Shown here piece after piece: positions 25,252 through 25,672 of a stretch of 64,000 nt of DNA. Numbering within the stretch: the stretch's first letter is position 1; each line of letters starts with the position of its first letter. Source of the stretch: Escherichia coli (GTDB lineage Bacteria; Pseudomonadota; Gammaproteobacteria; Enterobacterales; Enterobacteriaceae); NCBI RefSeq assembly GCF_003334255.1, contig NZ_QOWU01000020.1. One strand, written 5' to 3'. Under the pieces are notes generated by a model that did not search any database, was not told the origin of the DNA, and saw only the letters and a list, made by a program, of their open reading frames with translations. Both the position numbers and the translations under genes were made by a program.

Positions 25252-25465
25252 ACCCTATCGCCTGTCATTTTTATTAACGACAATGACTATAGGTGGTTAC
25301 CTGAGGAAAATCTTAATGAAACGTGTCGTATTAATGAATTTCTTTTGCCACTACTAGCTTGACACCGCTTTTACCCTTCATTTGCAGCGCATAGATTCCA
25401 CCAGCCACTACCACTAATAGTGCGCCCAGCAGATAAAATGTGAATTTAATCAGGCGGATACAGCG

Positions 25466-25672
25466 ATGAATTTTATTCGACAGGGATTAGGCATCGCCTT
25501 ACAACCAGAGTTAACGCTGAAAAGCATTGCAGGTGAATTGTGTTCCGTTCCTCTCGAACCAACTTTCTATCGACAGATTTCGTTGCTGGCTAAAGAAAAG
25601 CCGGTAGAAGGCAGTCCACTGTTTTTACTACAAATGTGCATGGAACAATTAGTGGCGATTGGAAAAATTTGA
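25466..25672 (+). pseudogene. yfaH: C-terminal remnant of a LysR-family regulator
   Basis: 68-aa ORF resembling the end of a LysR substrate-binding domain; no intact HTH N-terminus upstream. Confidence 0.5.

Follow-up and report, generated by a model that had tools for sequence, protein, structure and literature searches.

yfaH (b2238) of Escherichia coli: an annotated pseudogene and LysR-family fragment, very probably left by a single microhomology deletion

The closest described counterpart of the locus analyzed here is yfaH (b2238) of E. coli MG1655, which has the same sequence and equivalent coordinates and which the RefSeq record NC_000913.3 labels a pseudogene. Over 7 kb, MG1655 2346500-2353500 corresponds base for base to positions 22279-29279 of the window (the whole stretch of 64,000 nucleotides that was analyzed), and the 68-aa ATG ORF on the window's ORF list at 25466-25672, + strand, is an exact match to b2238 at 2349687-2349893. 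Given this exact overlap, the object already carries both a name and a pseudogene class. The MG1655 record, however, covers only the 68-codon ATG ORF, whereas homology begins 36 nt earlier, at 25430, and the leftover 3' end of an MFS transporter gene on the opposite strand (25331-25437, − strand) is without annotation there. PGAP marks both fragments in other genomes; in those identical to the window here, it places two partial pseudo-CDSs at exactly 25331-25437 and 25430-25672, the MFS fragment being entered as "missing N-terminus." No paper on the origin of the yfaH/b2238 locus was found in a literature search. A Tc-resistance cassette has been put in place of the gene to serve as a neutral linked marker in the transduction of gyrA alleles (PMC2714960), and a yfaH qRT-PCR signal was reported to rise 7.7-fold in a cpxR mutant overexpressing NlpE (PMC9600279).

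The local gene order in the window is nrdB, yfaE, inaA (−), the yfaH region, glpQ (−), and glpT (−), and the features between inaA and glpQ are the following:

24601-25251, − strand: inaA CDS, the left neighbor, a 216-aa ORF annotated as lipopolysaccharide kinase InaA
25252-25330, − strand: inaA 5' region, with a candidate −10 hexamer and a candidate marbox (sequence read directly)
25331-25437, − strand: MFS transporter 3' remnant, the last 34 codons plus stop (translation match, PGAP)
25430-25437, no strand: deletion junction with a single CAGATAAA (three-way alignment against the CLSC36 flanks)
25430-25672, + strand: LysR regulator remnant, codons 213-292 plus the native stop (tblastn, PGAP)
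25466-25672, + strand: yfaH (b2238), the 68-aa ORF (ORF list, allele alignment, MG1655 annotation)
25680-25705, no strand: 10-bp perfect hairpin between the LysR remnant and glpQ (inverted repeat and RNA fold)

A preliminary description of this DNA had taken the ORF for the C-terminal end, and nothing more, of a LysR effector domain, had seen no HTH-bearing N terminus upstream, and had called the locus the relic of a LysR-family regulator; our searches bear out all three statements. When the intact 299-aa LysR protein encoded at the same locus in strain CLSC36 was used as the tblastn query, its residues 213-291 aligned to 25430-25666 with 86% identity (E=4e-39), and the remnant DNA proved 93-94% identical to intact alleles. 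Residues 1-212, by comparison, left no trace in any frame of 25200-25720 under very permissive tblastn settings or in the rest of the 64-kb window; the best stray match to them had an E value of 0.38 in a search space of 521 bp. In the intact orthologue, Pfam HTH_1 occupies residues 3-63 and LysR_substrate residues 88-267, the latter spanning model positions 2-188 (E=1.6e-35). A functional LysR regulator would be expected to carry HTH_1 (PF00126), a complete LysR_substrate domain (PF03466, ∼209 positions), and a divergent target preceded by a T-N11-A dyad. HTH_1 was found neither in the 68-aa ORF nor in any frame of the window, LysR_substrate is incomplete in the remnant, and the divergent control region is deleted in the window.

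A profile search of the ORF, which had been proposed as the check on LysR homology, did match LysR_substrate, although at a borderline score (E=0.0075, model positions 144-189 of 209). Among family models, the ORF scores best against NCBIfam NF007272/PRK09729 ("hypothetical protein," 68 residues), which aligns to residues 13-80 of the 80-aa remnant (i.e., the 68-aa ORF) and which the intact LysR protein matches at residues 226-291; the model length and match coordinates indicate that it was built on YfaH itself. Descent from a LysR gene is supported by similarity and by synteny, the inaA-glpQ interval being the site of the LysR gene in E. coli, its congeners, and related genera; it is this orthology, rather than the ORF's own profile score, that is decisive for the origin of the fragment. 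The LysR assignment holds for 25430-25672 but not for the remainder of 25252-25672, the interval first marked out as the LysR remnant, which comprises the inaA 5' region and the MFS remnant. The 68-aa ORF itself corresponds to residues 225-292 of the 292-aa form of the regulator.

The lesion was identified by comparison with intact alleles. In CLSC36 and O157:H7, two copies of CAGATAAA lie exactly 1879 bp apart (positions 4126 and 6005 of locus L002; positions 2126 and 4005 of locus L005), one in the MFS 3' coding end and the other at codon 213 of LysR. The window has one remaining copy, at 25430-25437, and we mapped the junction by three-way alignment of the window with the left and right flanks of CLSC36: to the left of this copy the window tracks the MFS 3' end, and to the right it tracks LysR from codon 213. 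Two copies at this spacing in the intact alleles argue for a single deletion between microhomologies, and the alignments show the K-12 state to be what one 1879-bp deletion between 8-bp direct repeats would have produced. The deleted segment holds LysR codons 1-212 (HTH, linker, and the greater part of the effector domain), a 151-bp divergent control region, and MFS codons 1-362. Its loss brought the MFS and LysR genes together by their 3' ends, tail to tail in opposite orientations, and removed both promoters, the putative LysR operator, and about 11 transmembrane helices' worth of the transporter. On the transporter side, tblastn detects only residues ∼361-396 in the window, and the translation of the remnant, YLLGALLVVVAGGIYALQMKGKSGVKLVVAKEIH followed by a stop, matches the C terminus of the intact 396-aa MFS protein. 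The microhomology presumably gave rise to the deletion through either replication slippage or illegitimate recombination independent of RecA.

The truncating lesion expected of a pseudogene can be named here as the 1879-bp deletion with its mapped junction. Frameshift decay, which was to have been reconstructed from 25252-25700, is not what is found; instead, codons 1-212 were removed outright by the one deletion. An extra frameshift in K-12, seen as a 1-bp insertion relative to CLSC36, was considered and rejected because multi-allele alignment shows CLSC36 to be the variant. The common form of the protein (O157:H7, cryptic clades) has 292 aa and ends in GKI and a stop, and a 1-bp deletion in CLSC36 extends it to 299 aa. 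Since the K-12 stop is the native one, K-12 carries no additional frameshift.

The intact arrangement is represented by CLSC36, in which inaA (−) is followed by a gene for a 396-aa MFS transporter (−), one for a 299-aa LysR regulator (+), and glpQ (−); equivalent loci occur in XJ6-3, O157:H7 (WP_000176738.1 and WP_000660231.1), and one O145 strain. Both members of the pair match only generic family models below the NCBIfam cutoffs; the regulator has many such LysR-family matches, all under the equivalog cutoffs. In a scan of other species, with one genome taken per species, the LysR orthologue was found in E. whittamii, two cryptic-clade Escherichia, two Kluyvera, and one Pseudocitrobacter. 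Two of the Escherichia loci (L009 and L011) have the full order yfaE-inaA-MFS-LysR-glpQ-glpT, and a third (L008), whose sequence ends at the LysR gene, reads yfaE-inaA-MFS-LysR. The left side is yfaE-inaA-MFS-LysR in Pseudocitrobacter and yfaE-MFS-LysR, without inaA, in Kluyvera; within the available flank, neither genus gave a match to glpQ or glpT. In both Kluyvera loci (L010 and L013), the pair adjoins yfaE directly, so the presence of inaA varies among genera.

Because the intact pair stands in synteny in the outgroups, the K-12 state is derived; on this sampling of genomes, the intact MFS-LysR pair is the ancestral arrangement. The ancestral order that the comparison shows is yfaE, inaA (−), MFS (−), LysR (+), glpQ (−), and glpT (−), with MFS and LysR transcribed divergently out of the 151-bp control region. 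The regulator did have a divergently transcribed neighbor, as had been surmised, but that neighbor was not inaA, since the 396-aa MFS gene lies between LysR and inaA. The converse scenario, in which the K-12 arrangement is ancestral and an MFS-LysR pair was later inserted, was rejected because K-12 keeps coding fragments of both genes; the intact syntenic pair in the outgroup genera also rules it out.

How the arrangements are distributed within the species was gauged in 5426 complete E. coli genomes, searched by megablast with 25200-25720 as the query. In many strains the query was split in two, with MFS transporter and LysR genes annotated between the halves. The K-12-type junction is present in 3105 of the 5426 genomes (about 57%). 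The comparison with genomes carrying an intact orthologue, one of the checks originally suggested, finds the MFS-LysR pair, with LysR intact at the same locus, in 1213/5426. Neither gene is present in 1057/5426, which have a 202-bp inaA-glpQ spacer (NC101 and E2348/69-like strains), and by subtraction about 51/5426 have other arrangements. This three-way structural polymorphism at inaA-glpQ is a mildly useful by-product of the survey.

Several further observations concern the population variants. The spacer of the neither-gene form (NC101, L004:5053-5254) corresponds to window positions 25252-25713; it can be aligned with the other forms only up to ∼20 bp into the MFS 3' end, beyond which ∼100 bp have no counterpart in the intact locus. 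This haplotype is probably an independent, larger deletion or a replacement. A divergent MFS-LysR allele with ∼85% DNA identity to the common one occurs in about 100 E. coli genomes (e.g., L003:6133-8366 in XJ6-3 and L019:381-2614 in O145 RM8843). Over the last 80 LysR codons, its pS is 0.72-0.83 against every other allele, cryptic clades included, whereas common E. coli and cryptic-clade alleles differ from each other by a pS of just 0.27-0.51; the pattern is suggestive of either recombinational import or a balanced polymorphism of long standing. Some strains carry an extra 356-aa hypothetical ORF, with no NCBIfam family, in the gap between the LysR gene (or remnant) and glpQ (L005:4711-5781 in O157:H7; L006:3439-4509, frameshifted, in strain E92). 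As this ORF accompanies both the intact and the deleted MFS-LysR forms, the polymorphisms have recombined or arose independently. Lastly, a 3474-bp contig labeled "MAG: Collinsella sp." (JAIJJM010000334.1; L007) holds an E. coli MFS-LysR-glpQ segment with 98-100% protein identity and is almost certainly an Escherichia contig misbinned into an actinobacterial MAG.

The substitution pattern of the remnant was assessed over the 80 retained codons in seven remnants, six of them tabulated and one (L017) read off the alignment; each comparison contains few substitutions, and the estimates are accordingly noisy. Among intact alleles, pN/pS is 0.08-0.20, apart from one near-identical pair (five differences) at 0.44, and between remnants and their nearest intact alleles it is 0.6-1.4. 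Constraint is thus relaxed in the remnant, as expected of a pseudogene, for a small sample of 80 codons and seven remnants. All seven remnants share the replacements Y216C, H220Q, I225M, S226N, L237Q, and T244S. The third of these created the annotated start codon: the yfaH ATG is Ile225 (ATC or ATA) in every sampled intact Escherichia allele and ATG in 7/7 deletion-type sequences, and the 68-aa ORF exists because Ile225 mutated to Met while the native stop was kept. In three further deletion-type strains, the remnant is interrupted by in-frame stops ahead of this ATG, and in strain 2017-03-3CC the 68-aa ORF itself is frameshifted by the loss of 1 bp; the ORF is open in six of the seven sampled sequences. 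Small as the samples are, everything points to a remnant in neutral drift.

We consider it very probable that yfaH is a dead LysR fragment that arose from the single 1879-bp deletion and has since drifted neutrally. With no HTH, no dimerization helix, no promoter of its own, and ∼55 effector-domain residues, the remnant would have no plausible activity, and yfaH is almost certainly nonfunctional as judged from its sequence. Two observations speak against a dead fragment: the 68-aa ORF is still open in six of the seven sampled deletion-type sequences, and the qRT-PCR signal noted above (PMC9600279), the sole hint of expression, implies that some RNA spans the yfaH region. A CpxR box (GTAAA-N5-GTAAA, ≤2 mismatches) was absent from 25252-25713, and the reported CpxR dependence of this RNA is thus without an obvious site here. 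The same RNA signal could be claimed for YfaH as a genuine, translated 68-aa protein, co-opted into a role such as interference with other LysR-type regulators, as could the openness of the ORF in most sampled deletion-type strains and the retention of an equivalog model (NF007272) in NCBIfam. The start codon of such a protein, however, arose by substitution within the coding sequence, at what was an Ile codon; the consensus scan recognizes no promoter for it, and the ATG is preceded, at a distance of 8-9 nt, by no more than a weak purine run, GGCGGA. Moreover, pN/pS near 1 with Leu-to-Gln-type changes within the ORF, the frameshift in 2017-03-3CC, and the loss of most of the parent fold all run counter to a maintained protein, and the use of yfaH as a neutral marker (PMC2714960) suggests that its deletion has no phenotype. 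We therefore regard a genuine small protein as very improbable. It is just as hard to credit that YfaH is translated in deletion-type E. coli in a new role, such as disturbing the oligomerization of other LysR-type regulators, although such a role, if real, would account for the ORF having stayed open in most of these strains.

A different kind of residual function would lie in the DNA itself, if the remnant region (25331-25672) still modulated the inaA promoter through leftover LysR operators or other sites. Position lends this idea some appeal, for the remnant lies upstream of inaA, about 180-420 bp from the start codon, and the sequence beyond about −100 varies between haplotypes. The operators, however, can be placed in the intact locus: the MFS-LysR intergenic region contains one block conserved across genera, CTATTAGAGAAATTAATCGTTTTAATATTATTAATTAG, located 10-45 bp before the LysR start codon. 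Two ATTA-N7-TAAT dyads of the T-N11-A type overlap within it, and it is the obvious candidate for the LysR operator. This block, which holds the only cross-genus-conserved candidate LysR boxes, falls wholly within the deleted segment along with the rest of the divergent intergenic region, and the cognate LysR protein is no longer encoded in this genome segment. A search for LysR T-N11-A boxes, recommended in the preliminary description and run here on 25252-25713 as ATTA-N7-TAAT with ≤1 mismatch, returned none, and the suggestion that residual operators could affect inaA is not supported. Nor do the LysR remains overlap the inaA promoter, as had been supposed; ∼100 bp of MFS 3' coding remnant separates 25430-25672 from 25252-25330.

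The inaA promoter itself can be outlined from the 5' region. A −10 hexamer, TATAGT, is inferred at 25291→25286, and a marbox-like sequence, ACGACACGTTTCATTAAGA (25329→25311), lies 18-19 bp upstream of it, adjoining the MFS-remnant stop codon. The search for mar/sox/rob boxes upstream of inaA that had also been suggested gave this one match, with 3 mismatches to AYnGCACnnWnnRYYAAAYn, a motif that occurs at chance level in the window (138 against 139 expected), so the inaA marbox is proposed from position and geometry only. The marbox/−10 spacing at inaA fits the geometry that Martin et al. (1999) reportedly described for class II mar/sox/rob promoters. The 80-bp inaA-proximal block that contains both elements is conserved in the intact, K-12-deleted, and neither-gene haplotypes of E. 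coli, and inaA would have retained its own promoter, entirely inside the 80 bp adjoining its start codon. The LysR remnant begins ∼100 bp past the distal edge of this promoter and consists of 3' coding sequence only. We consider an influence of the remnant region on inaA highly unlikely, if a shade less so than a translated YfaH, and the tempting idea of leftover LysR operators acting on inaA is removed as unsupported. In intact strains the MFS gene heads into inaA across 80 bp with no recognizable terminator, and the deletion may have removed read-through transcription into inaA. Comparisons of inaA regulation across lineages should take into account that ∼22% of strains have an MFS gene running into inaA.

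Other signals around the locus are few. A consensus scan of 25100-25800 for sigma-70 promoters and intrinsic terminators found none on either strand. The hairpin at 25680-25705 (RNA fold, −19.6 kcal/mol; z=−4.8) was missed by the terminator consensus because it has no adjacent T-run; it is probably a terminator stem shared by the convergent LysR remnant and glpQ. Apart from this hairpin, short repeats occur at chance level. Rfam gave nothing at threshold in 25150-25800, where the sole match, RmaA, scores 24 bits and its gathering score is 57. Farther to the left, the yfaE-inaA spacer (24548-24600) is filled by REP-like palindromes (including GCCAGATACAACGCTTATGCGTCTTATCTGGCCTAC), and similar repeats upstream of nrdB (22932-23150) give rise to a spurious long TTG extension of the nrdB ORF.

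Among known systems, yfaH is an ordinary, previously annotated pseudogene, and the comparison chiefly bears on its annotation. The yfaH pseudogene should begin at 25430 (MG1655 2349651), it has an unannotated partner in the MFS transporter gene remnant, and both remnants trace back to one microhomology deletion, today the majority allele in the species. The O157:H7-type intact pair shares its chromosomal position and native stop codon with the K-12 remnant, and the surviving K-12 parts have 86% amino acid and 93-94% nucleotide identity to it. In contrast to that pair, the K-12 copy is without LysR codons 1-212, MFS codons 1-362, and the 151-bp control region and, by prediction from what is left, cannot bind DNA or transport. 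Microhomology-mediated (illegitimate) deletions likewise leave one copy of the repeat, here of 8 bp, and lose the intervening DNA precisely; compared with known microhomology deletions that form pseudogenes, this one, recognized by comparison of alleles rather than observed as an event, shows nothing unusual.
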